64,000 bases of DNA, from the IMG/VR virus record IMGVR_UViG_3300024999_000034, positions 96,001-160,000 of that record; one strand, 5' to 3'. This DNA comes from a virus. Position 1 is the first letter of the stretch, and each line of letters starts with the position of its first letter. Both the position numbers and the translations under genes were made by a program. Of the stretch, positions 2,076 to 54,801 are shown in pieces. Under the pieces are notes generated by a model. The model had not been told where the DNA came from and did no database searches. It was given only the letters and a program-made list of their open reading frames with translations.

Positions 2076-3085
2076 AAAGGAGTGAAAATTAAATGGATTT
2101 ATCACAAACCCAAATTCACTGGAAATCTTCTTCTGAAGAAATTCAAGCAATGACTTATGAACAAGCGATTGAATTATTAGAGAATCAAATTAAAATGGGT
2201 AAAAGTACAAATCCTCAAGCAGCAGGGCCACGAAAACATATGGTTAAAGCTTATGAATTAGCGATTGAGGCATTGAAGAAATTTAAGGGGGGAAATTAAG
2301 ATGGGAAATTATCGTTTAGAGGATGAAGTCTGGGATGAAGCATGGGAGAATAATCCTACAGAAGAAATTACCGAAATGAGAGATAAAGACAACAAATTAT
2401 TTGTATTTGTTCATGCTAATAATCAAGAACAGCAAAAATTTCTGACAGAGGCATTGGAGAATAATTGTTTTGCTCAACCAGTAAACTTTATGGTATTACA
2501 AGCAGGAAAAGATATTTACACAAATAAGGTTTATCATCAAGATAAAGAAATCACAGAACCAGAAGAAATTAAGCGATTGTGGAATGGTACTAGACCTTAT
2601 TTTTCAATATCTAATGCTAATCCTGATCATATTGGAAACTATTGTAATTGGACATATCTTGAATCAATTATTGAAACTGGTTGGAAAAGACAATTTTCTG
2701 GTTGGTTGTAAATTAAATTAAATTTACCATTTTATGTCTATTAACTTAAAATTTAGAGGAGGAAAATATTATGGCTGATTATTCTTGTGAATGGTGTAAA
2801 CATGATGAAGATTGTAAATATGCTTGGAATTCAACAACTTGCGAACCTCAAGAAATGTTAGATTTGTACAACGCTTTACCAAAAGAAAAATATGAAGAAA
2901 TAGTGTCTCTTGTTGAATATCTTAAAACAAAAGAGGATGATAGTGATTATATCCAAACTATTGCATCTCAATTACAAAATAATATAATTTATAATTATCC
3001 TACAGAGGAAGAATTAAAGTATATTAAAGATTTGCTTTCTGATTAATATCAGATTCATTCTATAGAAAGGAGGTGATACTTATAA

Positions 3086-3307
3086 ATGAGAATGAAAGGA
3101 TTTTCACTAAATGATTTAGTTCAACTCTTACATAAATATAACTGGATAAGATTACGGCAAAAGGGTTCACACATTACATTTCAAAATACATATACTAAAA
3201 AGTCTATAACTTTAACAGACCATGGAAAATCTAAGGAAATATGTAGACCACTTGCAAAAAGGATACTGAAAGAAACTGGGTTATTGGAAATCGCATATTG
3301 TATGTAA
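3086..3307 (+). CDS. hicA: HicA-family mRNA interferase (no adjacent HicB)
   Basis: 73 aa; RQKGSHITF..TLTDHG..KEICRPLAKRILKETGL HicA signature; RBS AGGAGGTG. Confidence 0.85.
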   Translation: MRMKGFSLNDLVQLLHKYNWIRLRQKGSHITFQNTYTKKSITLTDHGKSKEICRPLAKRILKETGLLEIAYCM

Positions 3308-3441
3308 TACTGCACAATGTAAAAATAATTATCTAAGGAGTAATTTATGTGGTCATATCAATTCAACACTGTAAGTATAATTTATTGTGGTTGAGGTATC
3401 TACTGCCAATCAGGATAAATTAATAATTAGAAAGGAGCGAT

Positions 3442-3567
3442 ATGACCATGAAAAATAAAATCATAATTGCTGTTTTAATCGTTTTGAGTGTTGTTGCTTA
3501 TGTTAGTATTAGTGGAGGCAATAAAGAGGCTTACAAGTCAAATCAGAGTCTTACTGTGAAGATTTAA
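3442..3567 (+). CDS. 41-aa putative secreted/membrane peptide (missed by ORF track)
   Basis: Manual translation MTMKNKIIIAVLIVLSVVAYVSISGGNKEAYKSNQSLTVKI; RBS AAAGGAG; basic N-terminus plus hydrophobic core. Confidence 0.65.
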   Translation: MTMKNKIIIAVLIVLSVVAYVSISGGNKEAYKSNQSLTVKI

Positions 3568-3579
3568 GGAGGTATAATC

Positions 3580-4257
3580 ATGGCAAAGAAAGCAGAAATT
3601 TTTACAAAAGAATGTAAAGAGTGTGGAACTCCTGCTATCAAAAATTCTATTATTTGTACTGAATGCGGTGCAGAACTTAAATCTTCTAAGGGAATGGGAG
3701 TAGTACAGCCAATACGCGATAAGGCAAAGATTGAAGAAATGAAAGTTTACTTAAAATCTCATTCTCTTAGAGATTATACTCTTTTTATTCTAGGTATTAA
3801 TTCTGCATTAAGAATATCTGATTTGCTTAATTTGAAAGTATCTGATGTTTATGATGAAAACGGAAAAGTGCGAGAAAGGATTTTGGTTAAAGAAATCAAA
3901 ACTAGCAAGTCTAAAAATTTCCCTTTTAATAACAGTGTGAAATCTGCTTTAAATGAATATTATCATACAATAAAACCTGCTCAGACTGTTCTATTTGCTT
4001 CTCGTAAAGGCGATGAGAGTATTACTAGGCAACAGTCACATCGTATCATTAACGAGGCAGCTAAGGCATGTAATATTAAAGAACCCTGCTCAAATCATTC
4101 CCTTAGAAAAACATTTGCCACAGCTCTGTATGAAGCAGGAGTAGATTTAACACGTATTCAAGCTCTGCTCAATCATTCTTCACCAAAAGAAACCATCCGT
4201 TATATTGGCCTCAATCAATTACAGAATGATCAGATTTATTTAAATTTAAATTTATAA
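3580..4257 (+). CDS. Small tyrosine recombinase/integrase with N-terminal double Zn ribbon
   Basis: Full catalytic set: ALRISD (R), EIKTSK (K), NHSLRKT (HxxR), LNHSS (H), IRYIG (Y); CKEC..CTEC at N-terminus. Confidence 0.92.
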   Translation: MAKKAEIFTKECKECGTPAIKNSIICTECGAELKSSKGMGVVQPIRDKAKIEEMKVYLKSHSLRDYTLFILGINSALRISDLLNLKVSDVYDENGKVRERILVKEIKTSKSKNFPFNNSVKSALNEYYHTIKPAQTVLFASRKGDESITRQQSHRIINEAAKACNIKEPCSNHSLRKTFATALYEAGVDLTRIQALLNHSSPKETIRYIGLNQLQNDQIYLNLNL

Positions 4258-4281
4258 TAATAAAAATAAAGGATGGATTAA

Positions 4282-5988
4282 ATGAAAAATAAAGAATTGA
4301 AATACAATAATGTTAAAAAGCACATTGAAAGTTTGGGATATATTTTAATTAGTACAAAATATATTAATAATTCATCTAAAATAATTATCAAAGACTCAGT
4401 CGGTTATTATTATTTAACAACTTATGGCAATTTATGTAGTAATCACATTCCTTCTAAGGCTCATAAATCAAATCCATATGCTATTCAAAATATTCAACTA
4501 TGGACTGAATTAAATAAAAAACCATTTAAACCAGTAAGTGATCAACAATATATTGTGGCAAATGATAATCTCAAATGGGAATGTTTTAAATGCGGAGAAA
4601 CATTTAAAGCTACATGGGCAAATATATCCCATGTATCTAAAAATTATGGTTGTGGATTATGTAGTGGACATCAAGTTGGATTATCAAATTGTTTAGAAAC
4701 ATTAAATCCAACTCTTGCCTCAGAGTGGCATCCTACAAAAAATGGAAGTCTCACCCCTAATGATGTGACTTGTGGATCAGGAAAATTTGTTTGGTGGGAA
4801 TGTTCTAAAAATCATAAACATGAATGGGAGGCAGATATTTACAGTAGGAATGACGGTCATGGATGTCCATATTGTAGTGGACATAGACCTAGTGAAGATT
4901 ATAATTTATTAGTAACTAACCCTATTCTTTGTAAGGAATGGCATCCTACTCTAAATGATAAAAATCCGAATGAGTATTGCCCAAGTTCTCATGAATTTGT
5001 ATGGTGGAAATGCGGTCAAGGACATGAATGGTATGCTGTAATTAGTAGTAGAAGTGGTATAAATGGTAATAATTGCCCATATTGTGCAGGACAGTTACCA
5101 ACTGAGGATAATAATTTATTGGTTGATAATCCTCATCTTTGTGAAGAGTGGTATTATGAAAAGAATGATAAAAGACCAGAGGAATATTGTCCAAATTCTA
5201 ATCAAGAAGTTTGGTGGCAATGTAAAAAAGGACATGAATGGCCTGCATTAATTTCTAATAGGAACTCTAAAGAGTCGGGATGTCCATATTGTGCAGGACA
5301 ATTGCCGAGTAAGGAAAATAATTTATTTACTAGAGACCCAGTTTTAGCATCTGAATGGCACACTACAAAAAACGGAGATTTAACTCCTTACGATGTAACT
5401 GTTAGTAGTAATAAATATGCTTGGTGGAAATGTAAAGAATGCGATCACGAATGGTATACTATGATTAATTGGAGAAGTGGTGAAAATGGTTCAGGTTGCC
5501 CCGAATGTAACAAAACTAGCACAGGTGAGATATTGATTAGTAGCGTCCTAGATTCATATAGTATACCAAATACTTCTCAATTTAGAATTGAAGAATGTAG
5601 AAATAAAAACAAACTTCCTTTTGATCATGCAGTTTTTGGAGATATCGAAAAAACAGACTTAATCTTCCTCATAGAATTTGATGGATACCACCATTTTTAC
5701 CCTGTCTGTTTCGGTGGAATTTCAGAAGAAATGGCCATTAAAACAATGAAACAAACACAATTTCATGACAAAATAAAAGATAAATACTGTCTAGACAACA
5801 ATATACATCTTCTTCGTATTAATTACAAAGATTTTGATAATATCCCAACTATTATAACTACAGAATTGCAAAAATATAATTTACTACCATGTAATTTCTT
5901 AGATTATTCAGATACATATATGAATAAACTTTTACCTGAAAATATTATTGAAATACAAAATAGCGTATCTACTCCATACACAAACTAA
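4282..5988 (+). CDS. Zn-ribbon repeat (DUF4379-type) protein with C-terminal PD-(D/E)XK/Vsr-like endonuclease; probable homing endonuclease
   Basis: About four repeats of EWHPTKN..TP..V...S....WW.C..GHEW.....R....GCPYC.G; C-terminal LPFD..LIEFDGYHH..D.IKD.YC. Confidence 0.8.
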   Translation: MKNKELKYNNVKKHIESLGYILISTKYINNSSKIIIKDSVGYYYLTTYGNLCSNHIPSKAHKSNPYAIQNIQLWTELNKKPFKPVSDQQYIVANDNLKWECFKCGETFKATWANISHVSKNYGCGLCSGHQVGLSNCLETLNPTLASEWHPTKNGSLTPNDVTCGSGKFVWWECSKNHKHEWEADIYSRNDGHGCPYCSGHRPSEDYNLLVTNPILCKEWHPTLNDKNPNEYCPSSHEFVWWKCGQGHEWYAVISSRSGINGNNCPYCAGQLPTEDNNLLVDNPHLCEEWYYEKNDKRPEEYCPNSNQEVWWQCKKGHEWPALISNRNSKESGCPYCAGQLPSKENNLFTRDPVLASEWHTTKNGDLTPYDVTVSSNKYAWWKCKECDHEWYTMINWRSGENGSGCPECNKTSTGEILISSVLDSYSIPNTSQFRIEECRNKNKLPFDHAVFGDIEKTDLIFLIEFDGYHHFYPVCFGGISEEMAIKTMKQTQFHDKIKDKYCLDNNIHLLRINYKDFDNIPTIITTELQKYNLLPCNFLDYSDTYMNKLLPENIIEIQNSVSTPYTN

Positions 5989-6004
5989 TACTAATAAATA
6001 AATT

Positions 6005-6045
6005 TTATATAACTCCTTGATTTAATACCCAAGGAGTTATATAAT
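6005..6045 (+). promoter_or_regulatory. SigA-type promoter embedded in a perfect 15-bp inverted repeat
   Basis: TTGATT(6017-22)-17 bp-TATAAT(6040-45); arms TTATATAACTCCTTG / CAAGGAGTTATATAA. Confidence 0.7.
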
Positions 6046-6093
6046 AAACCTATCATCAATCCAAAAATAAACATAGAAAGGAGCAATACATAA

Positions 6094-6495: not shown

Positions 6496-6519
6496 ATTAT
6501 TGAGGGAGATATATGCAAA

Positions 6520-9500
6520 ATGATAAGAACGGAGAGTCAAATGTTAATTGATATATTGATTTATTTTGTAGGTATTTCCGTGATAATAACTAGTTTTTGT
6601 ATGGGGTGGTCTGGTGAATTGAAATATATTGAATCTATTAATATTTCAATTTTAGGAATGTTGACTATAATTTATGCTCATATGAGAGGGCAGAATAATA
6701 AATAGAAAGGAGTTGACTACATAAATGTATCCGCTATACTTCATCCCAAAACGTGTAATTCAAGAATATCAAACAAAAATCCACAATGCCAAATACCTAA
6801 CCACTCCAATTATCAAGAGAAAAATCAGTGCTATGATTCATGCTACAAAATATTGTAGAATTGATTTAGGAAATGGTAAATATCAACACAGATTTGGTCA
6901 TTGCAAAATGATTGTTGAAGAGAACAATTTAACTGTATCAAAAGTTGAATATACTATTATTGGTAGCGTTCCAAAAGGTGATGGGAAGTTTTATGATAAG
7001 ATATGTAAAAAATGTTATGGTCTGAACGATAAGCATACGGAATTTGCGGAGACTTGTAGAAATAAAATTATTGAAGGAGTGTGTTAATAATGAAAAAGTT
7101 ATTAATTTTATCTTTAATTGCAATGGTTGCTTTAACTGGTTGTGGTAGACCACAAAAGGGCGAGGATCTTTTAGGTAATAAATTTACAATTAAAAGTGTA
7201 ACAATCGGCGAAGGTTTAAATTCAGATATTTATGTTTTAGTTGATAAAAAATATGGGGTTAATTATTATTATATAGTTAATGGACATGGTAGATCATTGT
7301 GTCCTATCTATGATAAAGAAGGTAAAGTTGTAATTGATAAAGTAGAATAATCCTTGGAAATGTTTAATTCCTAGTATTTATAATAAGAAGGAGAGATTTA
7401 TTATGAAGGACATTATTATTGGAGATAAAAAGAGTAGTAGTTGTTCAGCAGTAATATATTTTGAGCATCCAGAGGTTCAAAATATTATAAGTCAAAATTC
7501 CCAACTATATTGGTGCCATGAGGAATTTACTAGAACATCAATTTTTATTTTAAAAGATACAGATGAAGGTGAAGCACTAACCGCATTACTTCATTGTAAA
7601 AGTTCTTTGGAATGTGTAGAAAACTTTTTACTTAATATTGCATTGAGCAATATGGATGTTTCGGATTTTAGAATTATAATGGAAAATTGTAGCAAAAGTT
7701 CTTTTGGAGATGGCATAAAATATAATCAACAACAACTAAGAAAAGTTATGGGAATTTAACCTTCGAAACTTAGCATTTACGGGAATTAAGAAAGGATGAT
7801 CAAAAATGATTAAAATTGAAAAGATTTCTGATGACAACTTTGAGGTTCTTATTTGTGATAAGTTAAAGAGTATTCTAGATAGAGACGAGATATTAATATT
7901 ATTATGGGACTTAGCAGACAAATTGGATTATGAAGTAAGGAGCAAGTGGTAATTATGATTAAATGTGAAAGATTTGTATTCTTTAAAAATAATGTAAGAT
8001 CAATTATTGCAATACACATTAAATGTAACTTATTCACAAGAACATTTTATCTTGATAAAGAAATTGAATGGGTTGCAGGGCCAGTTTATGACAATACATT
8101 AAACAAACAAAAGATTGAGGTAAAATTAGTCAATGATGATCCTAAATATGAGTTTCTAGTTGATGCTGTGGAATGGGAAGAGCTTAAAACTTATAAGGAA
8201 CAGATTGATAAGTTTCTGAAATAGAAAGGAAGATGATATTTATCATGATAACCAAAGAAGAATTCCTAAATAATTGGGATGCTAAAATTACAGACCAAGG
8301 AATTATGCTTCCAAAAGACACTTGTTTTGTATTTCTTGCTTCAGAATATTGCAATAAACTTAAATTGAATATTGATGATAAAGATAGGGAAACGATTCAA
8401 AATTTCGGTTATTGGTTGGAAGGAATGTTCGAAGTTTGTGACGGAACAAAAGGTAGATCAAATTATAATTGTCAAGACAGAAACTTAGGGGAGGTTGGAA
8501 TAATTAAATGAAAAAATCAGAACTGAAAAATGGTATGATTGTTAAAACAAGTGGTGGTAGATATGGTGTTATATGTCTAAAAGATGCAACAAATGAAAAT
8601 TGTATTAAATTTTTATATGATCCAGATTATTTATTAGATTATGGATGTCTTTTAAATAGCGGAAGCATGTTAGAATCATTAGATAATTTGGACGACAATT
8701 TAAATTTCTACTATTATGCAACAAAAGAAGATACCTTAATGGATATAAAAATCGGAGACAAATTAATAGTTGGACAAATAATTGAAGTGTTTGCTTTAAA
8801 TCAACTATGGTTAAGAAATAATTTATATCCTACGCCTAATGGGTTATACGGTGATAGTGAATAAAACTGCGATTTTATCCTATTTATGTATTTGAAAAGT
8901 AGAGTAAATTAAAGATAATAAGAGCATAAAGGAGATATAAAAATGGCGTTATTAACTTTTGAAGAAATATTAAAAGAGATTGAAGAAGAAGGATTTTATG
9001 AACTTCCACCTAATTGTACAAGTGGAGAAGAATATGAAGAATGGTTAAGAAAAGATAAATCTGAGGAGGAATTAATTAAATGAAAATAACATCAATAATG
9101 GAAACAACCAAGCAAGAGAAAACTATCTTTTATGATGCTCTAAATGTATACATTAAATATCTTACAGAAATGCTATCAGAAAGCACAGAAGGTACTTCTA
9201 AGACGCTTATCACTACAACCCTAACAAATACCAATCGCTTATTATCAGAGATGGAATTAAGCCTGTAAAGGAGCATAAACAATGACTGAAACAGAATTAT
9301 TAATCCAAGAAACAATTATTTATTTACTTGAAATCAGAAAAGATTATTCGAGAAGTGTATCGATGGATGATGTTGGCAAAGTAAGGACTTTAACTAATGC
9401 TGTAGAATTATTACATCAGTATTTAGGATTGATGCATTAAGAAAGGGGATTGTAATATTATGAAAAACAATAAATTAGTAAAAGAAATCAAAGAATTTTT

Positions 9501-10992: not shown

Positions 10993-11179
10993 AAATATTA
11001 GGAAGTTTTACACTTAACGGAAAGTAGAAAAGATGAAAATAAATATGAATTTAAGATAACTATACTTTAGATGAAGTTAAAATTGTGCTAGATAAAATTC
11101 TAGAATCTATTAATTATATTTTTAGCCAAAGTAACTTGCAACAAAATAAAATAATAAATAAAAGGAGGAAATTAATAAA

Positions 11180-12088
11180 TTGGGATCAGTTAAACAGTAT
11201 GAAGTTGCTGAAAGAAAAAGATTAGAGAAATTGGAAAGGGAACATAAAATAATAAATGGGGTAGATTATAAATTCTGCAATAAACATCATATTCATTTTC
11301 CAGATGAGGATATTTGGTTCCCTTCTACTACTGAATATTTTTACAAATCACACAATAAAACTGATGGGTTATATCCTTATTGCAAACGATGTGGAGTTGT
11401 AAGAGCTGAAATATGGGCAAAAGAAAATCCTGAAAGAACTGTAATACTTACAAAAAGAAAAAGGACTTCTCCACGCAAAAGAGAATATAGTAGACTCGCT
11501 CATGCAAAAGCTCGTGAAAGTGGTTACTATGCAGAATATATGAGTAAACCAGAAGTTAAGGCGAGAAAATATGGTAGTAGGCATAGAGACCATGAGATAA
11601 GTGAAAAGGAATGGATATATTGTAAAGATTACTTTAAAGATAAAGATGGCGACTGGTGTTGTGCTTATTGTGGAATAAAAATAAAAAATCATTTTATTGT
11701 AATTAAAGGAGTTATTAAAAATAGTGATCTCCATAAAGAACACAAAGATGATAAGGGAGCTAATGACATAAGAAATTGCATACCAAGTTGTAGAGACTGT
11801 AACTCAAATAAATGGGCTTTTGATTTTGAAGAATGGTATAGAAAACAAAAGTTTTTCACCGATGAAAGATATAATAAAATAATTCAATGGTGTACTGAAG
11901 ATTATAAATTATACATAGAAAACAAACCTTTGTTTAAAATATACAAAAAGAAAAATGATATTGGTAGTAAGTTTCATTATGAGATTTGGGAATTAGACGA
12001 ATTGATGAATCGAGTTGGATGTATATCTACGGCAGACAAGAAAAAAGATTTAGTGGATGAATTGGAAAAATTAATTTTAAATACATAA
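11180..12088 (+). CDS. HNH endonuclease, paralog 1 (TTG start)
   Basis: CAYCG..LHKEH..NDIRNCIPSCRDCNSNK; N-terminal Zn finger; similar to 30239 and 38656. Confidence 0.85.
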   Translation: MGSVKQYEVAERKRLEKLEREHKIINGVDYKFCNKHHIHFPDEDIWFPSTTEYFYKSHNKTDGLYPYCKRCGVVRAEIWAKENPERTVILTKRKRTSPRKREYSRLAHAKARESGYYAEYMSKPEVKARKYGSRHRDHEISEKEWIYCKDYFKDKDGDWCCAYCGIKIKNHFIVIKGVIKNSDLHKEHKDDKGANDIRNCIPSCRDCNSNKWAFDFEEWYRKQKFFTDERYNKIIQWCTEDYKLYIENKPLFKIYKKKNDIGSKFHYEIWELDELMNRVGCISTADKKKDLVDELEKLILNT

Positions 12089-12094
12089 ATAATT

Positions 12095-12120
12095 TCCTAT
12101 AAGCGACATCGTTTATGGGA
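12095..12120. repeat. 9-8-9 palindromic gene-boundary site
   Basis: TCCTATAAG-cgacatcg-TTTATGGGA just after a stop codon. Confidence 0.7.
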
Positions 12121-15237: not shown

Positions 15238-15251
15238 TAAATAAAATAGGA

Positions 15252-25547: not shown

Positions 25548-26016
25548 TATGTTTATAGAAAAGGTAATCACTAAAACCATCTTTGATCCTGAAGTTTTTA
25601 AAATAGGAACAAAAATACATGCAAAATATCAATGTGCAATCAGTGACGATTATAAATATTGGGAATATGATTTTAATGGAATTGTTAAATCTTATGATGA
25701 GGACATTATATGGTTAGAAGATCCAGATGATAGAGATTACAATGTATTTTCTGATGAATCGCGTCCTAGACGATATAAAATTGAATTGCAGTTAGTTAAA
25801 ATGGGATTTTGGGTATTAGAGTTTTAACTCCTTTCAAATCCATATTTCCTCGTACTTTAAGAACCATGAAACCATTATGTAACCCAATTCTTAATTTTAG
25901 AAATTATTAAAAAGAGGTGAATGCTTATAATAAATCATAAGTATTACAATAAATGGAATCTTAATATATAAAATAGTTAAGTATCAATAAATAAAATATA
26001 GAAAGAGGTTGATTAT

Positions 26017-26812: not shown

Positions 26813-27171
26813 AGTATTAAGAAGTAAATCAAAGGAGTGAAGTAAATGAAAGTAAAAATCCTAAAAGATGGCGAAAATGACAGAATGGTTATATTAAACG
26901 TCTTAGATTGGAGTGAAGTTCAGGTTAGTGATTTGATAGGTAAAAAGATTGTTGATATAACTCTTGATAATAAATATGAGGAAACAACTTTGGAACTAGA
27001 ATAATCCCAAGAAATTATATTTTTAAAGGTAGGTGATAAATTAAATGAACGGAGATAGAGAGTGTCCTCACTGCGGAGAAATGAGTTTATTCGAACAGGG
27101 TTTAAATCAATGGTTATGTGTAATTTGTGGTAGAGAGTTTGATGATGAATGGTTAGAAGGAGAAGAATAAT

Positions 27172-31185: not shown

Positions 31186-31713
31186 ATGAGTGACCATAAA
31201 AACAAAATCTTTATGATTTCAGATCCTCATTTCCATCATCAAAAAATTATTAAGTATGAGAATAGACCATTTGAAAATGCTGAACAAATGACTAAGACAA
31301 TTATTAAAAACTGGAGTAAAGTTGTTAAGAGAGATGACGAAGTTTTCTGTTTAGGAGATGTATGTTTTAAAAATAAAGAAGTCACAACTGAGATTGTGCA
31401 ACAATTAAATGGAATTAAAACTTTAATCTTAGGAAATCATGATAGATCAAAGTCAGTAACTTGGTGGAAGGGATGCGGATTTCAAGAAGTAAGTAAATAT
31501 CCTATCATTGTTGGTGAGTTTTATATTCTATCACATGAGCCTATTTATTTAACTGAAGCAATGCCTTACGCAAATATACATGGACATATTCATCATTTAA
31601 AATATGAGAGTAAGCAATATTTTAATGTTAGCGTTGAATGTATTGATTATACTCCTATGGATTTTGAAGATATTAAGAAGGAAATATTGATTAGGAATAT
31701 GGAGGATAAGTAA
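31186..31713 (+). CDS. Calcineurin-like metallophosphoesterase
   Basis: SDPHFHH, LGDV, LGNHD, SHEP, HGHIH. Confidence 0.88.
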   Translation: MSDHKNKIFMISDPHFHHQKIIKYENRPFENAEQMTKTIIKNWSKVVKRDDEVFCLGDVCFKNKEVTTEIVQQLNGIKTLILGNHDRSKSVTWWKGCGFQEVSKYPIIVGEFYILSHEPIYLTEAMPYANIHGHIHHLKYESKQYFNVSVECIDYTPMDFEDIKKEILIRNMEDK

Positions 31714-31845
31714 ATGGCATTATTAAATCTTGAAGAATTATTAAAAGAGGTAGAAGAAACAGATTGTAAACTCCCTCCTCATTTTATTGACGGTGAGGAA
31801 TACGAGGAGTGGCTTAGAAAAGAATTAATCAAAGATAATAAGTAG
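31714..31845 (+). CDS. 43-aa mini-protein, paralog of 8943-9083
   Basis: MALLNLEELLKEVEE..LPP....GEEYEEWLRK vs MALLTFEEILKEIEE..LPP....GEEYEEWLRK. Confidence 0.7.
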   Translation: MALLNLEELLKEVEETDCKLPPHFIDGEEYEEWLRKELIKDNK

Positions 31846-31931
31846 CCCCAGAAAAAACGCATTTTATCTTTATTTAAGATTGGGAAAGTGGAGCATATAT
31901 GAGTATATAGTAGCATGAAGGAGATTGACAA

Positions 31932-32108
31932 ATGAAAGAAAACGAATTATCAATTCAAGGAACTATTAACAGTTTAATTAAACTGAGAAAAGATTATATG
32001 GGTGCAGGAGGATGTTCAATGACCCATATGGACATTAACCAAGAAAAATTAAAGGTACTAAGGAACGCTATTGAATTGTTGAATAAATTATTAGTTTTGC
32101 AGAAATAA
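31932..32108 (+). CDS. 58-aa mini-protein, paralog of 9282-9440
   Basis: ENELSIQGTI..L..LRKDY..L.NAIELL vs ETELLIQETI..L..IRKDY..LTNAVELL. Confidence 0.65.
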   Translation: MKENELSIQGTINSLIKLRKDYMGAGGCSMTHMDINQEKLKVLRNAIELLNKLLVLQK

Positions 32109-33827: not shown

Positions 33828-34746
33828 AAAATTGAGAGGTGGGACACATATGGAAAAGAGACACCAATTAGTAGGATATAGTAAAATTGAAGACAGAGAA
33901 CATTCATTAATGAAATTCAATAGCTATGCAGACTTCAAGGAAAATCTTATTGATCGGGAAGATTTAGAAGGATATACTGATTATATAGTCATTTAATATT
34001 GTAAATAAACTTAAAAAGATGGTTAGTGGATATTTTGCTTATGACAGGACACGTTAAATGACGTATTTTAAGTTAAGTTAAGTTGAGAGAGGAGGATTCA
34101 TTTTATGGAACAAAAAGTTTATTGTACTGAGTGTGAATATTTAAAGGATGAAGATGCAGATATCTATAGTGGTAAAGATGATATCATGTATAAGAGTGGA
34201 ATAAAAGTTATTTTTACATGCTCTAAACACAATGATCGTTTACTAAATCTATATAGTAATGTTATTTGTCCGTGTAATAAATGTAATGGCAAAGACTTTG
34301 AATTTTATACTACAGGGTCTAAAAGGTTAAAACCTAATGTGTTATATTAAGTGCAAAAGGTGGTGTAATAAATGTCTAGAAATATTCCATTGGGGAACTT
34401 AAATGTATTGGCAGATATTAGTTATACTAATGTATTAGATAAATATATAATAGGACTTCATATAGGAAGTATCTATACGATCCTAAATGAGAAATTTAAT
34501 TCAGAAAAAGAGGCTATGGATTATATATTTAAGAATTTTTAAAATCCTAGCAAACGTGAACTTTAATGGAAAGAAGATGATTAAAAATGTTTGTTGTTAC
34601 AACGGATACTTATGGAGAAAGATATTATATAATGGAACAATTGCCAGTTAAATGGACTAAGGAGTTGAATAGAGCAGTCTTGTATGAATTTGTAGCAGAG
34701 ATACCACCATTGGAAAGTGATTTTGATTATATAGTTAAAGTAGAAC

Positions 34747-35397
34747 ATGATGAAAATGGTAAATTATATATATCACACGAAAATTAAGTTTAAATTGAAG
34801 GAGTTGTACATATTGTATCAATCAATGCATGAAATTTTAAAAGAAGGTAAGGTTGGTAAATTTGAATTAAAGAAGTTTACTATTGGTAATAGTGATTTAC
34901 GTGCTATGATGGATGGTATTCCAACAGGTGATTATATTAAGCTTCAGAATCCATGTGATGTTATTATGTCAAATACATCTATGGAGAAAAGAAGTAATGC
35001 TAGATTTGTTATGGACGTTCATGGAGATGTTTTTATAGCAGGATTAGGAATAGGGTTAATAGTATTGCCTATTCAAGACAAAGAAGAAGTAAAATCTATT
35101 ACTATTTTAGAAAAGTATCCTGAAGTAATTGAATTAGTTGGTAAACAATTACATTTAAATGAAAAGGTAAAGATTATTCAAGGCGATGTATTTGATTATG
35201 AATTTCCAAAAGGAACTAAATTTGATACTTTATATTTTGATATTTGGAATTATGTGAATTCAGATGTTTATGAGAAAGAAATGAAGGTATTGAAGAAAAA
35301 ATATAGGAAGTATAAAAGATCATTAAAAGATAATCCAAATGCTTTTATTAAATGTTGGGCAGAATATGAGGCCAGATATGATAAACCATTGAGATAG
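34747..35397 (+). CDS. Class I SAM-dependent methyltransferase (spermidine-synthase-like)
   Basis: VFIAGLGIG, ILEKYPEVI, IIQGDVF, FDTLYFDIW. Confidence 0.75.
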   Translation: MMKMVNYIYHTKIKFKLKELYILYQSMHEILKEGKVGKFELKKFTIGNSDLRAMMDGIPTGDYIKLQNPCDVIMSNTSMEKRSNARFVMDVHGDVFIAGLGIGLIVLPIQDKEEVKSITILEKYPEVIELVGKQLHLNEKVKIIQGDVFDYEFPKGTKFDTLYFDIWNYVNSDVYEKEMKVLKKKYRKYKRSLKDNPNAFIKCWAEYEARYDKPLR

Positions 35398-35399: not shown

Positions 35400-35425
35400 T
35401 CCGATAAATTTATTCTTTTCTGGGA
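35400..35425. repeat. 9-8-9 palindromic gene-boundary site
   Basis: TCCGATAAA-tttattct-TTTCTGGGA, 2 nt after stop. Confidence 0.7.
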
Positions 35426-36846: not shown

Positions 36847-37468
36847 AAATTATATGTAATGAGAGTGAAAAGAAGTGGTTAATAAAAGCATTAGAGAATA
36901 GTGAATATGGGTGTCCTAAAGTTCATTCATTGTCAAGATGTTTGATACAAGAAACTGATGGTTGTTTAACTTCTACTTTTGAAAATTGTATAGTTAATCA
37001 AATAGAATTTGTAGTACAATAAATGATAAGTAAGGAGATTATACAGTAGTGGATATATTTGATAGAATTCAAGAATTAAACAAAAAAGGTATAATTCTTG
37101 ATTGTATAGCTGTTAATCAAATAGATAATGGTAATGAACAAGGTGTTAAAAATGGAGCATTTCCTTTAATAACTTATACGGTAGAAGTAATGGATACTTC
37201 ATTAGGTGAAATGTTTTATACAGAATCGTGTGATTCATTTAAAGAAGCTATTTATTCAGGAGTAAAATTCGCAGAAGAAAAATAGTGTATATAGGAGGAG
37301 ATTAGAATAATGTTTCACATTTATAAAAGAGATGATAATGGAAATGAAACTAAATTAGAATTTATTAAAATAGAATCTACCAAGCAAGATGCAATTAAAA
37401 CATGTCAAGAATTAAATATTGAATATTTTGGAACTGCTTACGCTCCATATTGTTATTTTGAAAAGTAA

Positions 37469-37494
37469 TCCCATAAAGGTGTGGTTTTAATCTA
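37469..37494. repeat. 9-8-9 palindromic gene-boundary site
   Basis: TCCCATAAA-ggtgtggt-TTTAATCTA right after a stop codon. Confidence 0.6.
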
Positions 37495-38179
37495 AGTGAG
37501 AAAGTAGTGAATTTTACATGAAGAAAAAATATGAGTATGATATTGGTGATGGTTTTAAATTTGTTTTAGAAGCAAATTCTCAAGAAGAAGCTGATGAACA
37601 ATTAAAAGGTTATGATAAGTTTTTTAAAGATTTTGGTAGAGTTACAAAAGTAATTCTAAATGATATGGTAGATGAATGAGATTTAGGAGGTAAAACAAAT
37701 GGCATCAATAACTCTCAAAAACATAGCAGAGCATATTATGCTAGGTAATGCTAAAACCAGTGAAGAATTTAGTGATAAGATTAAAGGTCAATGGGAATAT
37801 AGGAGTAATAAAAGTATTTCTGATGTAAATTTGGCAGTACAGAAAGGATTAAAACTAGGTAAAGGTAAATCAGAAAGGGAAATCGAATGTGTGGCTATGT
37901 ATCTGGAAAGTGTTTTGAAGAAAGTTAAGGTTGTTAAGAAGGAGAGTGTTAAAGATGTTAAAATTTAAAATTGGAGACGAAGTGACAGTTGGTAAAATCG
38001 AATTTAAATTTGATGAATCTGAGGGCGAAGGAAGATTTATTGGTGGTGTTGGAGTAATTATTGAGGCAGTAGAAGGGATATCTCCTTATCAGATAAAGTT
38101 CTATGATAAAGGAACTCAGAAGGTTAATGAGAATATGGGAAGTAGATTATTTGAGGAATCTGAGTTATTTTTCTTGTAA

Positions 38180-38578: not shown

Positions 38579-38655
38579 AATCAAACCACTTCAATATCTA
38601 GTTTCGAAGTGGTGAAAAATTAATTAATAAATTATAATAAAGGAGAAATAAAAAT

Positions 38656-45697: not shown

Positions 45698-45734
45698 TAT
45701 ATTATTATGAAGATTAGAGAGGAGTTAAGTAACA

Positions 45735-48106
45735 ATGGAAGTAATTAAAGAAAAACAAACTGTAGAAATTGAAAAAATTATTATGACAAGGGAAGAATAT
45801 AATAGTAAAATTAAAGAAGCAAGACTTAGAGGTAGAATTGAATTAGCCAATGAGTTAAGAAGTTTAATTGTTAACTTTGATTATGTGCTAAATATTAGTG
45901 GTATTAATATATTATTTAAGCGTTTGGCAGACAAAATTATGAGCAGTTTGTATTAAAATAAAACAAATATTTCGAACTATAAAAGGAGATAAGATTTATG
46001 AAATCGTTAGAAGAAATTCTAAATGAAACAGAGAACTTACAATCTCAAATAAATGTATTATTAAAAGAAGTAAATCAATTACAAAAAGTTACCTTAAAAA
46101 ATATTTTTTGTAATCAGGAAAAGAATATAAATAAAATATTATTCAAAGTACATGAATTACAAGGAAAAGTAGATGCATTAATGTGGGTAACGCTTTAAGT
46201 TATTAATTGAAAGGAGTAAATAAATGAAAACAATACTATTTTCTATTGGAACTTTATCATTATTTATATTTTCTTATTTAGCAGGAATGGTAATGATGGC
46301 AGATAAGAAAGTTAATCTTTCAGATTTGTCAAAAACTTATGTAGTGTTTAAAGGGAATGGTAGGTTGTTTGTAATACTTTATGGTATATCTTTGATGTCT
46401 ACTGTTTTAGTTTGTTATTCATTTATGAAACTTTAAGGAGGATAAATACAATGGAAATAAATACAAATGAGATGTCTGAAAAAGAATTTTCTAATTTAAT
46501 AAAACAATTGTTATCTAAAAGATATCCAGAAGCAAATAGAATTAATATTGATATATGGAGTTATAGTAAATCCCTTGATAGTATTAAAATTGTGCCAACG
46601 TATGAATTTAAGTAGTTCCCTTAAGTTATTGTACTTATAGGACAGAGAGAAGGAGAAAAAATAATGTTTAAGAAATTTAACTACAATCTAAATCATAGTT
46701 TAGTAGGAACAATATGGGGAATATCACTATCCATAATGTTGGCTTGTTTATTTGAGTTATCTATAAATTTAGAAAGTATTATACCTAAAAGTGAATTGGT
46801 TGTAGTTTTATTAAGTGTCGCAATAATATCTAATTTTAGCATAGCGACTTATATATTATTCAAAAGTGATATTGTACCAGTCAATGTTACTTATGTGTGC
46901 CCTACTGCTAGGAAATATTTGAGTGAGCAAGAGATAAAGGAATATGAGAAAGTGGTAGAAGATGAAATTATAAATGATATAGAATTTGGCGAAGAATTGG
47001 TAAAAGCGTATAAAGAAATTTAATACAAGAAAAGAGGTATGTAAATAATGTTTAAAATGAAATCAATTCAATATAAGTTTCAACCAAAGTTTACTCCAAC
47101 AAAGGAAATATATAATAAATGTATTATAGCAGAGCCTTTTAAGTGGGATAATGGTCATGGTATTTCATTTATTATTGAAGTTGAAATTCCATTGGAAGGA
47201 AAAGTTATTGGTTCAAGATTTAAAACAATGGAAAGATATGATTATTTTGATAGAGATGTTAGAGGCAGTAATTATGAATTATCTTTATTATTTCAACCTT
47301 TATTTAATGGTGAGATAAGAGGTAAGTATGCTGAGAATGTGGTTTGGATGATATTTGATAAATTGTGTAAGAATGAGAAGTGGTTAGAGGAACACTTTAG
47401 CGAGTATGTGGAGTTTTTAGAAGAATATGAATTATGGAAATGAAAAGGAGTTGATATAAATGCCAAGACCATATTTAGTAGGTTGGAAATATGCTTTTGA
47501 AGCTTATTTCAGGACATTTAAGAGAACAAAAGCAAGTAGAAGTATGTGGATTAAGTTAGTTAAAAAAGGTTATTATTGGTTAACTACAGAAGAAAGAGTA
47601 GAAGCGAATAAGAAATGTTTTGGAGCGATTTCTGAACTAGGTAAAAATATGTTTCCTAATGGCATATCCAAAGATGACTATCGATACTCTTATAATTGTG
47701 ATGAAGATGATAATGATATAACCGAAGAAGAAAGAGAAATATTACTTCAATATCGCAAAGATAAAAAAGAAGGTAAAGTAGAGACAGTACCATTAAGAGA
47801 TATTTAAGAAAAATATGAGAAAGGAAATAAATAATGTTCAAAAAGAAATTAAACCTTGACAAATACCTATTTCTAGTAACTATATGTATTTTAATTAATC
47901 TCTTAGAATCATGGTATTTTGGTTTGAATTGGCAAGCAGTTACAATTGCAGAGAAAATATGTGATTGGATTACAACAATTCCTTTTATAATAATTTCATT
48001 TTGGTTTTTCTTTAGTAATGATTACATAGAATTTATTAAGGGATATTTTATTGTGGTAATTATGTTGTTAGTGTATGGTTTGGCGTATGGGGTAATATTT
48101 ATGTAG
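45735..48106 (+). other. Run of small hypothetical ORFs, several membrane proteins
   Basis: 46224, 46664 and 47834 are hydrophobic; RBSs present. Confidence 0.6.
46617..46642. repeat. 9-8-9 palindromic gene-boundary site
   Basis: TCCCTTAAG-ttattgta-CTTATAGGA, 1 nt after stop. Confidence 0.7.
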
Positions 48107-48153
48107 TCCAATGAGTTGTGGGTTTTATCCTAAGTTAAAAAGGAGGAAGAAAA

Positions 48154-49479
48154 ATGTATGCATGGAATCCAGTTTATAATTTTGTCTTAGAAATTAAAAA
48201 ATTATATCAAGATAAATTTGGAGACATTGATTATAGTATTCACTCCATTAAAGACAAAAATAATATGACAAAAGAATTCACTTGTTTAGAGAAATGGGTT
48301 GGTGATTTACATGTTCAAAAGTATATAGATTTAATTGAACCACTTCAAATAAATCAATTAGGAACTATGTTACTTATTCGTTATGGTAGATATAGTGATG
48401 TATTTGGTGGAGAAAATGAAATAACTAATGATAATTTCTGGGATATTCATAATGGATTTTATAAAGAATGTCGAAGTGTAGTTATTGATGTAAAAACAGA
48501 AGAAATAGTTTTAAGTCCTTTCAAGAAATTTAGAAATTTAAATGAATGTGAAGAAAATAATATCGAAATAATCACAGAAGAGATTAAGAATGCTAAGTCA
48601 CTTGAAATAACTAATAAACTAGATGGATCAATGCAAAGTGCTAGATTTTATCATGATAATATTATTATGTCTGGAAGTCAGGCAATTGATATAAATAACT
48701 CTTGGAGACTTAGAGATGGTCAAGGAATGCTGATGTCTCAGGCAAACTATGTTAATATGCTTAAAGAGAATCAAGGTTATACGTTTATATTTGAGTATAT
48801 TACGCTAAAAGATGCACATGTAGTGAATTATAAACAAGAGGACGAGGGTTTATATTTACTTGGAATGAGAAATGTTTATACTGGCGAACAGTTATCATAT
48901 GCACAAGTAAAGACTTATGCGGATATGTACAATGTAAAGATGACACATATATTTGATAAAACATTTGATGAAGTATTGAATGATGTTGATAAGTATAAAT
49001 CTCATGAGATGGAGGGATATGTTATCAATATTGATGGTCATTTAGTGAAAATTAAATGCGATGATTATGTTCAGATCCATAAGATTTTATCTAATATTTC
49101 TTCAATTAATTTAATTATTAAGCACATTGCAGACAATACATTTGATGATTTGATTAGCAAAGTCCCTGAAAGTTATCATTGGAGAGTTATGAAAGTTGCT
49201 AATTTAGTATTTAATTATATTAAAAATGCAGAAGTCGAAGTTAATAATTGGTTTAAGATTGCTCCTAAAGAAAATAAGAAAGATTTTATGATTTATATTG
49301 AACAAAATGTTCCAAGAGAACTTCGTGGATATGTAAGATGTAAATATCTGGGTAAAGAATTTAGTTATATTAAGAATGGCAATGAGCAGAGTCCTTCTTA
49401 TAAGAAGTTGAAAGAAATGGGTATTGATGAGAATTATTCTGCTATTTTCAATAGCGAGGAGTTCGGATATGCTTCATGA
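48154..49479 (+). CDS. ATP-dependent RNA ligase (T4 Rnl1-like)
   Basis: Motif I KLDGS, III FIFEY, IV EGYVI, V VKIKCDDY. Confidence 0.85.
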   Translation: MYAWNPVYNFVLEIKKLYQDKFGDIDYSIHSIKDKNNMTKEFTCLEKWVGDLHVQKYIDLIEPLQINQLGTMLLIRYGRYSDVFGGENEITNDNFWDIHNGFYKECRSVVIDVKTEEIVLSPFKKFRNLNECEENNIEIITEEIKNAKSLEITNKLDGSMQSARFYHDNIIMSGSQAIDINNSWRLRDGQGMLMSQANYVNMLKENQGYTFIFEYITLKDAHVVNYKQEDEGLYLLGMRNVYTGEQLSYAQVKTYADMYNVKMTHIFDKTFDEVLNDVDKYKSHEMEGYVINIDGHLVKIKCDDYVQIHKILSNISSINLIIKHIADNTFDDLISKVPESYHWRVMKVANLVFNYIKNAEVEVNNWFKIAPKENKKDFMIYIEQNVPRELRGYVRCKYLGKEFSYIKNGNEQSPSYKKLKEMGIDENYSAIFNSEEFGYAS

Positions 49480-50808: not shown

Positions 50809-50809
50809 A

Positions 50810-51724
50810 ATGAGTAAACTAATCATGATGTGTGGCCTTGTGGCGAGTGGAAAATCTTTTGTGGCAAATCAGTTAGCATTAAAAGAAAATGCAGTGATTC
50901 ATTCCTCTGATGAATTGAGAATTGAGTTATTCGGAGATGTTAATGAAGTTGATAAAAATGGAGAGGTATTTCAAGAATTGCACAAAAGAATTAAAGATGA
51001 TTTAAAGAAAGGTAAAAATGTTATATATGATGCAACTAATTTAAATCACAAGAAGCGTAAGGGATTCTTGGAAGAGTTAAAGAAATTGGATGTACGAAAA
51101 GAATGTATCTTTGTAGCAACTCCATATGAAAAATGTCTTGAGCAAAATAGGAAAAGAGAAAGAAAAGTTCCAGAGTATGTAATAAAAAGAATGTATATGA
51201 GTGTAAATATTCCTCAGTATTATGAGGGATGGAATTCTATTGAAATTGTATATAATGTAGATGGATATGATTTTGATACTAATTTATTATTCAATGGTGA
51301 GAATGGATTGAATAAAATAGATCAACACAACCCATATCACACTTTAACCATTGGTAAACATTGTCTTAAATGTTTTCAGATATGTGAGCAATTACTAGAT
51401 GACTTTGAATTGAATATGGCTGCAATGTATCATGATATAGGTAAGAGATTCACTAAAACATTTAAGAATTCTAAGGGTGAAGATACTGAGATCGCACATT
51501 ATTATCAACATCATTTAGTTTCAGCATATGATAGTTTGTTTATTTTCAATAAGCAAGGGTTTGAACCAGAAACGATTCTAAAGACTACTAATTACATACA
51601 GTGGCACATGATGCCATTCTTTCTTGATACAGATAAGTCCAAAAATAAATTTATTAATTTAGTTGGTCAAGAATTTTATGATAAATTACTAATTTTGCAT
51701 GAAGCAGACAAATTGGCAAAATAA
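50810..51724 (+). CDS. Polynucleotide kinase (AAA_33 P-loop) fused to HD phosphohydrolase
   Basis: CGLVASGKS, SSDELR, DATN, R..RER.VPEYVI; C-terminal H..AAMYHDIGK..AHYYQH..LHEAD. Confidence 0.88.
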   Translation: MSKLIMMCGLVASGKSFVANQLALKENAVIHSSDELRIELFGDVNEVDKNGEVFQELHKRIKDDLKKGKNVIYDATNLNHKKRKGFLEELKKLDVRKECIFVATPYEKCLEQNRKRERKVPEYVIKRMYMSVNIPQYYEGWNSIEIVYNVDGYDFDTNLLFNGENGLNKIDQHNPYHTLTIGKHCLKCFQICEQLLDDFELNMAAMYHDIGKRFTKTFKNSKGEDTEIAHYYQHHLVSAYDSLFIFNKQGFEPETILKTTNYIQWHMMPFFLDTDKSKNKFINLVGQEFYDKLLILHEADKLAK

Positions 51725-51926
51725 TCCAAACTTGTAACCCTACTCCCACAACATTTTTAAAACCATAAATTCCCATAAAAATCAAATTTCATTGTATGAA
51801 GGTGAAGGTGGAAAATAAATGAATAGAATATTTGATAATTGGTTGACTTGGGCGGTAATTGGCTTTTCTATATATTGTATTCTTGAATTATTAATAGATA
51901 AAGGTGTTTTAAGATAAATATAAGAG

Positions 51927-54801
51927 GTGGTATTAATAATTATGAAAAGAGTAAATGTTACATATTTTAAACCAAGTGGGAAGTATTATACTCATGAAGA
52001 AATTGAGATTTCAAATGAACTTAGTGGTTATCATGCACTTTTTGAAGAAATACCTAAACACCATAGAATTAAAAATATGTTTATGTTGGTTCAAGATGGT
52101 GATGATAACTTAGAGCCATATATTGTTCCGCATTTATTTAGACCCTTAGAGACTTGGGAATAAAGTGTCTAATATGAAAGAGTTATTTTCTGGGAAATTA
52201 GAAAGGAGGTAAATTTAATGAAAGAATATTGGAATCGTCTTAAAATTAATGATATTAAATCTGTTTCATCAGGTGTTGGAGGTAGTTATTCATATATAGG
52301 TGGTGAAAACGAAGAGTATTTCGATGTAATAATGAAAGATGAATCTAAGCATACTTTCCATTACATAACCAAAGATAAAACAAGATATGGCAGAATAGCA
52401 AGAAAAGAATTAAAACAAATTTTAAATGAACGAGACAACGTTTCAGAAATGTATTATTTATATACTAGTGTATTTGCCAGAATTAATGGAGAGTCAATTA
52501 AAGTTGGATATGAAGTAGAAAATATCTTAGATGAATATGAAAATTTCAGCTTATTAGAAATTGATAAATTAAGAAAAGAATTTAAAATTGGTGATAAGGG
52601 TTTTAGAAGTCTAGTGTATATACATGTATTTGAAATAAAAGATAATAAAATTATGCGTCCAATTGAACAAAGATGGTTGGATCAATTAAGTAGTATGGGG
52701 TATGATATTTCAAAAATAGAATATACACTTTATGAAAAAGATATTAATTATAATTGATTTCTGGTAAAGAAAGGATAATAAATATGAAAGATAACCCTAA
52801 TTGTAAAATATGCAAATTAAAATGTTGTGGATGTCAAAGTTATGAAACTTGCTTAATGCGCAAAGGCGAAAATGGTCATAAAATAGAAGATTGTACATTC
52901 ATGGCAAGTAAATATTATTTATTTGGTGATTATTTGAGTTATGAAAAAGGTTTGAATATGAGGTTGTGTAATTACGATGAAGTGTGTAAGAGTTTGGTGG
53001 ACGCTTGGATGTAAATTAACTTATAGAAAAGGAGTAATTAAAAACATGATAAACTGTTTGTGTTTTACTTGTAAAGGATGTAATAATGAAGATTATCCTT
53101 GTGAAGATGATATAGAAGATCCATGTGGTAATTGTAGCAATGGTAGAACCATTTCATGTACTGGATATTCTGTAAAATAATAATAACTTCAAAGAACACT
53201 TCGATTGGATAAGGAGGAAATATTTAAATGAAGTATAAAGAGTGTATTCAATGCAAATGTAATACATGTGAAGATGAATATTGTAAGAATGAATCATGTA
53301 ATGAAGGTTGCAGAGATAATAAATTTAATCCAGTTTTAGGTGATTGTCATGGATATTGTACGTTAGATTCACTTATAAAGGAAGATATTCAATGAAGAAA
53401 ACATATTGTGATGCATGTGAAAAAGAAGTAAAGCATAATTATCCTTTTACTTGTTTAGTACATATCTTAGATGATGGCAAATATAGTGGTGGAGGATATG
53501 TAACCACTGATGAGGTTAATGGTAAGTGGTTGAATGTATCAGGTAGAGAAGAATCAAAGGATTTATGTTTGGAATGCTATAATAAAATTTATAGTGTTGC
53601 TTGGAAAGAGTTTTTAAATATTAAGAATCTGAATAGTAAATAAAAATGGGAGTAAAATTTAAAAGAAAAGAGGAAATAGAATGAAAAATGTTACTATTAA
53701 TAATTGTATTGATTGTTCTTCACATCAGGTATTACCAGATCCAGACCCTCATGATTGGTTTTGTGACGATGATGTTAAAGTTATATGTTCTATAGGTAAT
53801 AGAGAAATTACATGTGCGTGTAGACCATATAATATTAGAAAAGAATGTGATATTCCAAAATGGTGTTTTAAATTCAAATAATGAGGTATTTTTTGGGAAT
53901 TAGTAAAATTAAAATCGTTGCTACAGTAGGCTTTCATGGTTTGGTACTTAGTATTAAACATGTCTTTTAACGTATTTGATATTAAGGAGAGAGATAATCA
54001 TGTTAATTAGTCTAAAAGAATTACTAGACGAGATTGAAAAACAAGAAGATGATTTGTCACAAGATATAGAACTAATTAGTTTTGAAAATTATCTTCACAA
54101 ATGTTCATATTGCTATAAATGGGAGAATGGAGATTGTTTAGAGAAATCTTTGCCTAATAATTGTAGTTGGGATGGCATTATGTCCATTGCTAAAGAAGAT
54201 AAAAAGAGAGATAGAGAACAAATAATTAAATATATGGAGGAAAATAAATGAGTTGTTACGCTTTTACATGTCAATGTTTCTATTGCTCAAGAGTACAATA
54301 TGGTTGCAAAAGGGACACGCCTAATAAATGTGCTGAACATAATTGTGGCTTAGACATCATTTGCTCACAACCATTGCCAGATAATTATTATATTAATCAA
54401 TGTAAAAGATTTGGAAAAGCTGAATATGATGTAGGAGCTTGTATTGATTGTAGTGTAGAAAACAAGAATTTGTTTTATGTTTGTAGAGATATTATGAGAA
54501 ATTTGAAAGAAAAGAAAGTTAGAAAGGACAATTAATCATGAAACAAGTGTATCAATGTGATTTTTGCACAATATTACTTCCAAAAGAAGAAATGGAAATT
54601 CATGAAAAAATATGCGATTACAATGTTGTAAATAAAACTTGTTTAACTTGTAAAAATGCCAGAATGAGGGATGGAAGATTACAATATTGTAGAATTGGTG
54701 TTCAAATGAATGTTCAACATGGAGTTATCATTAGAATTTATCCTATTATTGGTTGTGATAAGTGGGAATTTGGAGAACCTAATGATATGAGGAGTGTGTG
54801 A
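51927..54801 (+). other. Run of small ORFs, many strongly Cys-rich
   Basis: 52754, 53046, 53344, 53681, 54248 and 54538 carry multiple CxxC. Confidence 0.6.

Follow-up and report, generated by a model that had tools for sequence, protein, structure and literature searches.

What is the short palindrome that recurs between the small genes of the phage genome described here, and what might read it? The genome (G000) is a single virus record, IMG/VR IMGVR_UViG_3300024999_000034, of 180,838 bp (180.8 kb) and 28.8% G+C, with genes that switch from the minus to the plus strand at about 46 kb; its proteins place it among the SPbeta-like phages of Clostridia. The window that we analysed is a 64,000-nt stretch of this record (G000:C1:96001-160000), and positions below are those of the window unless a genome is named. 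It holds about 140 plus-strand genes, mostly small, and is roughly 85% coding and 15% intergenic. An earlier note on this DNA described about 19 copies of a palindrome, TCCYATAAR-N8-YTTATRGGA, at gene boundaries, and took them for either operators of an MrpR-type repressor or integron-like cassette borders used by a recombinase encoded in the window. We find that a degenerate 26-bp palindrome is real and intergenic, although about half of the listed copies do not belong to it. As a general idea, a DNA site read by a protein at the junctions of a plastic small-gene array stands, and we tentatively favor, with less than even confidence, the more specific possibility that the palindrome is a double-stranded DNA site for a putative symmetric protein and a portable junction for the exchange of accessory genes.

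Comparisons were made with five IMG/VR relatives, each used whole: G001 (76.9 kb), G002 (230 kb, with a completeness rating of 100%), G003 (150 kb), G004 (154 kb) and G005 (166 kb). A search of isolated phages yielded no close relative, and related prophages sit in genomes of Lachnospiraceae and Acutalibacteraceae. The region is highly mosaic, most small genes between 30 and 56 kb being without a counterpart in the matching loci of the relatives, and spacers in the array are about 45-60 nt long. No known RNA families and no relevant long exact repeats were found in the window.

All 19 listed sequences were located where the note had placed them. When the 18 fixed positions of the proposed consensus were compared with Markov shuffles, three sites (12095, 35400 and 46617) had zero to two mismatches against 0.08 expected, five had three or fewer against 0.83, and 12 had four against 5.3; at five mismatches the count was at the background level (28 against 36). 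Ten of the 19 copies carry five to seven mismatches (2714, 7759, 8857, 12509, 13302, 14267, 27359, 31846, 48107 and 53873), and those at 2714, 8857, 12509 and 27359 have the AAA-N8-TTT core alone. The consensus is a fair idealisation of a real, weaker pattern. We refined that pattern to TCCnnnRAA-N8-TTYnnnGGA, in which only 12 of the 26 positions are constrained and the 14 free ones include the 8-bp centre, and allowed up to two mismatches. It gave 17 sites in the window against 10.3 +/- 3.0 expected, 14 of them intergenic. The motif thus has about 14 intergenic sites in the window, and the genome-wide total is about 30. Ten of the earlier copies pass (7759, 12095, 27005, 34545, 35400, 37469, 46617, 51771, 52170 and 53873), as do two sites absent from the earlier list, 7351 and 25829.

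The outer arms were also considered apart from the AT-rich core, in four genomes (G000-G003) whose intergenic DNA holds 269 RAA-N8-TTY cores. TCC, a scarce triplet that makes up 0.6% of those in spacers, is the commonest one on the left flank of these cores (30 against 1.7 expected, 18-fold) and GGA the commonest on the right (23 against 4.6); the two stand together beside the core in eight cases, against 2.6 if they were independent. The same flank enrichment was looked for in coding DNA and was not found there. The spacing is equally sharp: (i) of 56 TCC sites, 14 have GGA at exactly position 23, and GGA is hardly ever displaced from there by one to six bases; (ii) in intergenic DNA of G000, TCC is followed by TTT(A/C) at a gap of 13-14 in 19 sites, against about two for each other gap; and (iii) this peak recurs independently in G001, G002 and G003. 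With the refined pattern at up to two mismatches, site density per kb was 1.22 intergenic against 0.135 coding in G000, 1.37 against 0.187 in G001, 0.70 against 0.105 in G002 and 1.02 against 0.117 in G003, or about 6- to 9-fold higher between genes than within them. Half-sites taken singly were not enriched in the plus-strand gene region (bases 46001-180838 of the genome), and most copies combine one good arm with one weak arm.

An enrichment analysis of k-mers and dyads mainly returned ribosome-binding sites and sigma-70 boxes, and the only other top dyad was TCCC-N12-TTTC. A strand-specific bipartite motif (two boxes) was considered and withdrawn, the flank test having given near-equal enrichment of TCC and GGA; in the antisense background, the complements of ribosome-binding sites swamp other signals.

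The proposed architecture of inverted 9-bp arms around an unconstrained 8-bp spacer, at gene boundaries only, is borne out, and so is the position of the site between a stop codon and the next ribosome-binding site, which follows the motif by 0-15 nt. Within the arms, the inner ATAA and TTAT blocks are 10 bp apart. The adjacency to stop codons needs no special mechanism, because a 26-bp site and a ribosome-binding site together fill the spacer.

This raises the possibility that the palindrome has no dedicated function at all and is a by-product of AT-rich spacers, phased A and T tracts, TAA stops, purine-rich ribosome-binding regions and a few true terminators. AAA-N6-8-TTT and TTT-N10-11-AAA are indeed enriched in general, and between the genes of the four genomes they exceed other spacings about 1.5- to 2-fold; the excess over the whole window is modest, three of 100 shuffles reaching 17 sites; and the sole exact copy of the earlier consensus is itself a probable terminator. 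We nevertheless consider this explanation distinctly unlikely. It does not account for a rare triplet topping the left flank at one exact position in four genomes, for the sharp position of GGA, or for the finding, described below, that the outer arms are specific to one lineage while the core persists outside it.

Is the palindrome read as a fold? When 14 sites were folded as RNA, 12 lay within z -1.3 to +1.3 and were no better than shuffles. Only two folds beat the shuffles: that of 12095 (-13.8 kcal/mol, z -6.0), which was flagged as terminator-like, and an unrelated hairpin at 38584-38619 (z -4.1). Covariation in the three variable arm positions was not significant (1.69 pairs against 1.45 +/- 0.19 with shuffled partners). 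A hairpin of RNA or of single-stranded DNA was rejected on these two results, and the palindrome is read as a DNA sequence rather than as a fold. An intrinsic terminator was likewise rejected as a general explanation, since a stable G+C hairpin with a T run occurs only at 12095; that copy is likely the intrinsic terminator behind the HNH gene at 11180-12088.

A signal acting in RNA by its sequence, whether to mark where processing splits the cistrons or to bind a translational regulator just upstream of the ribosome-binding site, would agree with the constant position of the motif between stop codon and ribosome-binding site. The genome also has RNA devices and encodes MazF-like RNases. Two Twister-P5 ribozymes score above the Rfam gathering threshold, at G000 66322-66387 and 66887-66958 (locus L115, outside the window). 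Readers of single-stranded RNA, however, seldom recognise a two-fold symmetric sequence that has no stable fold, and the compact spacers are enough to explain the tight position; in G004 the left arm even absorbs the stop codon. We regard a role at the RNA level as improbable.

Promoter activity fares no better. The boxes of the motif are unlike canonical hexamers, and a sigma-70 or alternative-sigma promoter was rejected as its identity; sigma-70-like promoters are present in 23% of the spacers with the motif, compared with 29% of the rest, and promoter scans gave no significant excess over shuffles. It could still be argued that TCCnnnRAA and TTTA..GGA are the boxes of a phage-specific promoter, either of a middle or late class or for a YonO-like RNA polymerase, as there are two boxes at a fixed spacing, a YonO-like polymerase gene is probable in G000 (phrog_8308), and some copies come after a hairpin element, as a promoter would. 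This hypothesis is quite improbable. Searches of the genome returned no match to Sigma70_r2 or to a T7-type polymerase, transcripts would start beyond most ribosome-binding sites if the right arm contained the -10 box, the YonO polymerase of SPbeta starts at one site, upstream of yonK (PMC5467207), and the symmetry of the motif would have no role in a promoter. One hairpin element, AAACCCTGAAA...AAGGGTTT, is conserved, lies 12-15 nt upstream of several junction palindromes and moves with them between genomes; it is found in G000 at about 174365-174395 (78365-78395 in window numbering, outside the window) and in G002 at about 168200 and 216260.

The behaviour of the element in relatives is what suggests a junction. 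The motif recurs in three related phages, G001, G002 and G003. The copy at 37469 lies in a spacer (37466-37517) that recurs at full length in G002 and G003 with about 90% identity, and each of the three phages has unrelated genes on either side of it; a search of IMG/VR for further relatives of this element returned only these two. Other elements are shared pairwise, among them that at 51771, whose left arm and spacer recur in G002 at 216243 with similarity stopping at +27, and sites outside the window; three shared junctions stand in the same order in G000 and G002. In a comparison of spacers conserved between any two of G000-G003 (islands), with homology of the flanks scored, islands with the motif had no homologous flank in five of seven cases and two homologous flanks in none, against 18 of 63 and 21 of 63 for motif-free islands (Fisher p 0.035). 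Similarity passes through the left arm and the centre and ends at +20 to +27, the boundary of spacer and right arm, in five of nine pair alignments, which are small numbers. The part of the earlier proposal that gave the palindromes a junction role stands insofar as some copies are kept in relatives amid differing flanking genes; both proteins that it named and the integron analogy are mistaken or, at the least, unsupported.

We favor, with the reservation expressed at the outset, a model in which a putative symmetric protein, dimeric or acting as paired monomers and supplied by phage or host, binds the palindrome, and in which the elements would serve as portable junctions between small genes. 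Since copies of one short element separate unrelated genes, exchange between co-infecting relatives would tend to end in or beside an element, and accessory genes would be replaced while the junction stays. The route could be either site-specific (Xer-like) or short-homology recombination of the kind seen at the early-promoter stem-loop elements (PeSLs) of phage T4. The pattern appears to fit exchange in or beside the element, on evidence that is thin.

Several observations weigh against this model. The seven motif islands represent only four independent families, and for one of these (136506) the match is AT-rich and doubtful. Conservation in the best family, that of 37469, covers the whole stop-to-start spacer, with breakpoints at the edges of that spacer instead of within the 8-bp centre. 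Most spacers of either kind coincide with the end of a homology block (33 of 45 informative motif-free spacers and four of four with the motif), and since nearly all informative spacers are such ends, the breakpoint comparison is without power. Purine-rich sequence near ribosome-binding sites may account for part of the GGA excess, and the general enrichment of AAA-N6-8-TTT may reflect phased A and T tracts, that is, bent DNA, in the spacers. Finally, a presence/absence screen of the six genomes gave 13 proteins that are common to G000, G002 and G003 and have no match in G004 and G005; a Pfam scan of ten of these 13 returned no known DNA-binding domain and hence no candidate for the binding protein. 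The protein that reads the palindrome may be one of the host.

More distant relatives retain just the core. G004 and G005 have few genes in common with G000 and are without the TCC/GGA arms. G004 has TAAA-N8-TTTA 26 times, against one to eight at each other gap from N4 to N12, and in 11 of these 26 junction sites the left arm begins with the TAA of the stop codon; G005 prefers a core gap of N6. The TCC/GGA motif is a lineage-specific outward extension of the core TAAA-N8-TTTA or TAAA-N6-TTTA of these distant relatives. A bolder version of the exchange model would make the palindromes addressed crossover joints throughout the SPbeta-like phages of Firmicutes: the 6-8 bp centre of each palindrome would be kept between relatives, a host Xer-type or phage enzyme would swap accessory genes only between matching positions, and the Clostridia lineage would have evolved the longer TCC/GGA arms. 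We consider this version unlikely.

With regard to the proteins that might act on the site, the earlier note had named two, and it is likely that neither is the reader. The first is the tyrosine recombinase encoded at 3580-4257, a genuine Xer-like catalytic domain. In alignments with XerD and the Xer-like recombinase 4a8e, R, K, HxxR, H and Y can all be matched, and its catalytic residues look intact. Its orthologue in G003 is 65% identical and matches from residue 39 on. In G002, which keeps the motif, neither a homologue of this protein nor any PF00589 (Phage_integrase) match was found, and this comparison leaves no recombinase common to all motif-bearing phages; the recombinase is disfavoured as the enzyme of the site. 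An integron-like cassette system run by this recombinase would suit the 9-8-9 layout, typical of a recombinase core site, the seemingly intact catalytic residues and the highly plastic, co-directional small genes. It is very improbable indeed. G002 already largely refutes it, there is no attC-like folded structure, and neither an IntI-type integrase nor an attI/Pc arrangement was seen, the match to IntI4 of this recombinase, the sole strong PF00589 protein, being weak (E 8e-4).

The second protein is similar to MrpR, YopR and SroF and has an integrase fold; its gene (G000 159425-160471) runs past the end of the window. An array of operators or roadblocks, in which a repressor-type dimer of the phage damps read-through at many junctions in the lysogen, is the main alternative to the exchange model. 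Such an array would work much as SPBRE/SroF boxes do in SPbeta or stoperators in mycobacteriophages of cluster A, and the sites would be conserved beside changing genes only because they are themselves under selection. In its favor, each genome has dozens of sites, placed in the short spacers that separate co-directional genes, the palindrome has half-sites graded as is typical of operator sets, the phage encodes an MrpR-like protein and there are precedents for genome-wide repressor sites (PMC9283540, PMC10516654); yet we find it doubtful, if entirely possible. There is no link to sigma-70-like promoters in the spacer comparison given above. The MrpR-like protein has homologues that are 88% identical in G001 and 71% in G003, but in G002 its counterpart is only 27% identical while the motif and single junction elements are shared, which disfavours this protein as the reader. 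SroF boxes are asymmetric, with 24 of 26 bp read by a monomer, whereas 14 of 26 positions are free here (bioRxiv 10.1101/2025.11.27.690993). Furthermore, the genome has a separate promoter-overlapping box of 22 bp. This box, TATWATAWTTAGTAATTACATA, is asymmetric; at G000 52357-52378, 53409-53430 and 54096-54117 (outside the window) it overlaps in each case the -10 region of a strong sigma-70 promoter, and a weak copy stands on the minus strand at 59575-59596, next to the lysogeny module. The box is a better candidate operator for the MrpR-like protein than the palindromes are.

Beside the MrpR-like gene, 60533-61333 encodes a 266-amino-acid protein without a family match that is 89% identical in G002, against 27% for the neighbouring MrpR-like protein. 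This contrast marks a sharp mosaic boundary within the lysogeny module.

The individual copies and the two candidate proteins are collected in the table. The site at 35400 is the best full copy; its ribosome-binding site lies 3 nt beyond the motif, and its RNA fold is no better than shuffles (z -0.70). That at 48107 is a diverged paralogue of the 37469 element and shares 92% identity over 25 nt with its copy in G002. The copies at 8857 and 27359 look alike because they are the ends of paralogous genes (repeat family D11).

Table. Palindrome copies and candidate proteins in the window (window positions; arms and centre given where noted).
Position	Strand	Feature	Context	Match, mismatches or fold
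3580..4257	+	225-amino-acid protein with tyrosine-recombinase catalytic domain; N-terminal zinc ribbon replaces the core-binding domain		PF00589, E 2e-31
7351..7376		left-arm copy, TCCTTGGAA-atgtttaa-TTCCTAGTA	right behind stop of 7081-7350	1 mismatch
7759..7784		right-arm copy, ACCTTCGAA-acttagca-TTTACGGGA	overlaps stop of 7403-7759	1 mismatch
12095..12120	+	perfect 11-pair hairpin, then TTTTT		sole exact match to the earlier consensus
25829..25854		left-arm copy, TCCTTTCAA-atccatat-TTCCTCGTA	past stop of 25549-25827	2 mismatches
27005..27030		left-arm copy, TCCCAAGAA-attatatt-TTTAAAGGT	right behind stop codon	1 mismatch; no fold, z +1.3
34545..34570		both outer triplets, TCCTAGCAA-acgtgaac-TTTAATGGA		1 mismatch; no fold, z +0.45
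35400..35425		full copy, TCCGATAAA-tttattct-TTTCTGGGA	begins 2 nt past stop of 34747-35397	0 mismatches to the refined pattern, 2 to the earlier consensus
37469..37494		left-arm copy, TCCCATAAA-ggtgtggt-TTTAATCTA	directly behind stop codon	
46617..46642		full copy, TCCCTTAAG-ttattgta-CTTATAGGA	between 46412-46615 and 46664-47023	1 mismatch to the earlier consensus; fold z -1.34
48107..48132		TCCAATGAG-ttgtgggt-TTTATCCTA	precedes RNA ligase gene 48154-49479	3 mismatches to the refined pattern
51771..51796		left-arm copy, TCCCATAAA-aatcaaat-TTCATTGTA		1 mismatch
52170..52195		right arm only, TTTCTGGGA		2 mismatches
53873..53898		right arm only, TTTTTGGGA	overlaps stop of 53681-53881	2 mismatches
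63425..64000	+	5' part of 348-amino-acid MrpR/YopR/SroF-like integrase-fold protein		PDB 8a0a (E 5.5e-6) and 8bj6 (E about 5e-6)

Some small genes have ends or starts that are paralogous, with 71-83% identity: 8853-8897 with 27355-27399, 8934-8987 with 31705-31758, and 9268-9347 with 31918-31997. The small-gene array also holds four likely free-standing genes of the homing-endonuclease type, at 4282-5988, 11180-12088, 30239-31135 and 55476-57080, with HNH, DUF4379 treble-clef repeat and NUMOD1 domains; such genes could bring about gene conversion locally in their own right.

In the large temperate phages of gut and rumen Clostridia, small genes that change fast stand in long arrays, and many of these genes probably serve in defence or counter-defence. 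If the favored model is true, a conserved junction element that is read by a protein would help to account for the order that such arrays keep despite the turnover of their content, and the 26-bp site would provide a concrete probe with which to find the protein that organises them. If the operator reading is the true one, the sites would define a regulon in a phage group without experimental data. Two tempting assignments, to the phage's own small recombinase and to its MrpR-like repressor, are corrected as well.

How does the element compare with known systems? Sites of the integron attC type work in a folded, single-stranded state and depend on an IntI integrase. The palindromes resemble them in standing just past the stop codons of promoterless, co-directional small genes, and differ in that they do not fold and that no IntI-type integrase was seen; the integron analogy thus fails on structure, as the sites form no stable hairpins.

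Among repressor sites, the SPBRE and Phi3TRE elements come from the same phage family, are repeated genome-wide at about 26 bp and belong to phages that, like this one, encode an MrpR homologue. SroF and MrpR act as monomers on long, asymmetric, phage-specific boxes, about ten of them at early promoters, and the Phi3T box is 26 bp long with 24 positions read (PMC10516654; bioRxiv 10.1101/2025.11.27.690993). Our palindrome, unlike these boxes, is two-fold symmetric, leaves 14 positions free, is present in about 30 copies and has no promoter link. Nor does its specificity follow the repressor as it does for SPBRE and SroF, the motif being shared with G002 despite the divergence of the homologue there. 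The stoperators of cluster A mycobacteriophages (L5, TipsytheTRex) are asymmetric 13-bp sites that are aligned with the direction of transcription and read by a two-domain monomer (PMC9283540). They too number two to three dozen in short spacers genome-wide, and the function, a roadblock to elongation, could be similar; the present sites differ in being palindromic with arms kept about equally (30 against 23), and no such repressor was identified.

In shape the element comes nearer to dif, difSL, loxP and pdif-type modules, which share its inverted arms around a short central region (PMC3025954, PMC2965235); its pairing of a strong with a weak arm is like that described for XerS on difSL. The left arm TCCYAKAA also resembles TTCCTAGAA in the dif site of B. 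subtilis, ACTTCCTAGAATATATATTATGTAAACT (sequence from PMC3025954). Unlike dif, which is present once, the element has tens of sites per genome, and its ATAA...TTAT blocks are 10 bp apart rather than six. The 9-8-9 layout of a core site holds for the consensus, and only eight of the 269 intergenic cores carry both TCC and GGA. A pattern search for the host dif site in genomes with related prophages did no better than the control, and for this reason the likeness to Xer/dif is a lead drawn from the B. subtilis dif sequence only.

In behaviour the nearest parallel is with the PeSLs of T4-type phages, in which a sigma-70 early promoter and a terminator stem-loop are combined and which act by homologous recombination (PMC2839356, PMC4122927). 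Both are short, conserved intergenic motifs among small, variable, co-directional genes, and in both the motif stays while its neighbours are swapped. That hallmark, a motif kept between differing flanks, is seen for the 37469 element in three phages and for five of the seven islands, numbers that are small and not independent. The palindromes differ in having neither a promoter nor a stable stem-loop, 12095 excepted, and in that their conserved part is degenerate with a free 8-bp centre. Of the systems described so far, T4 PeSLs come closest in how they behave and Xer/lox core sites in their shape, and the element belongs to neither.

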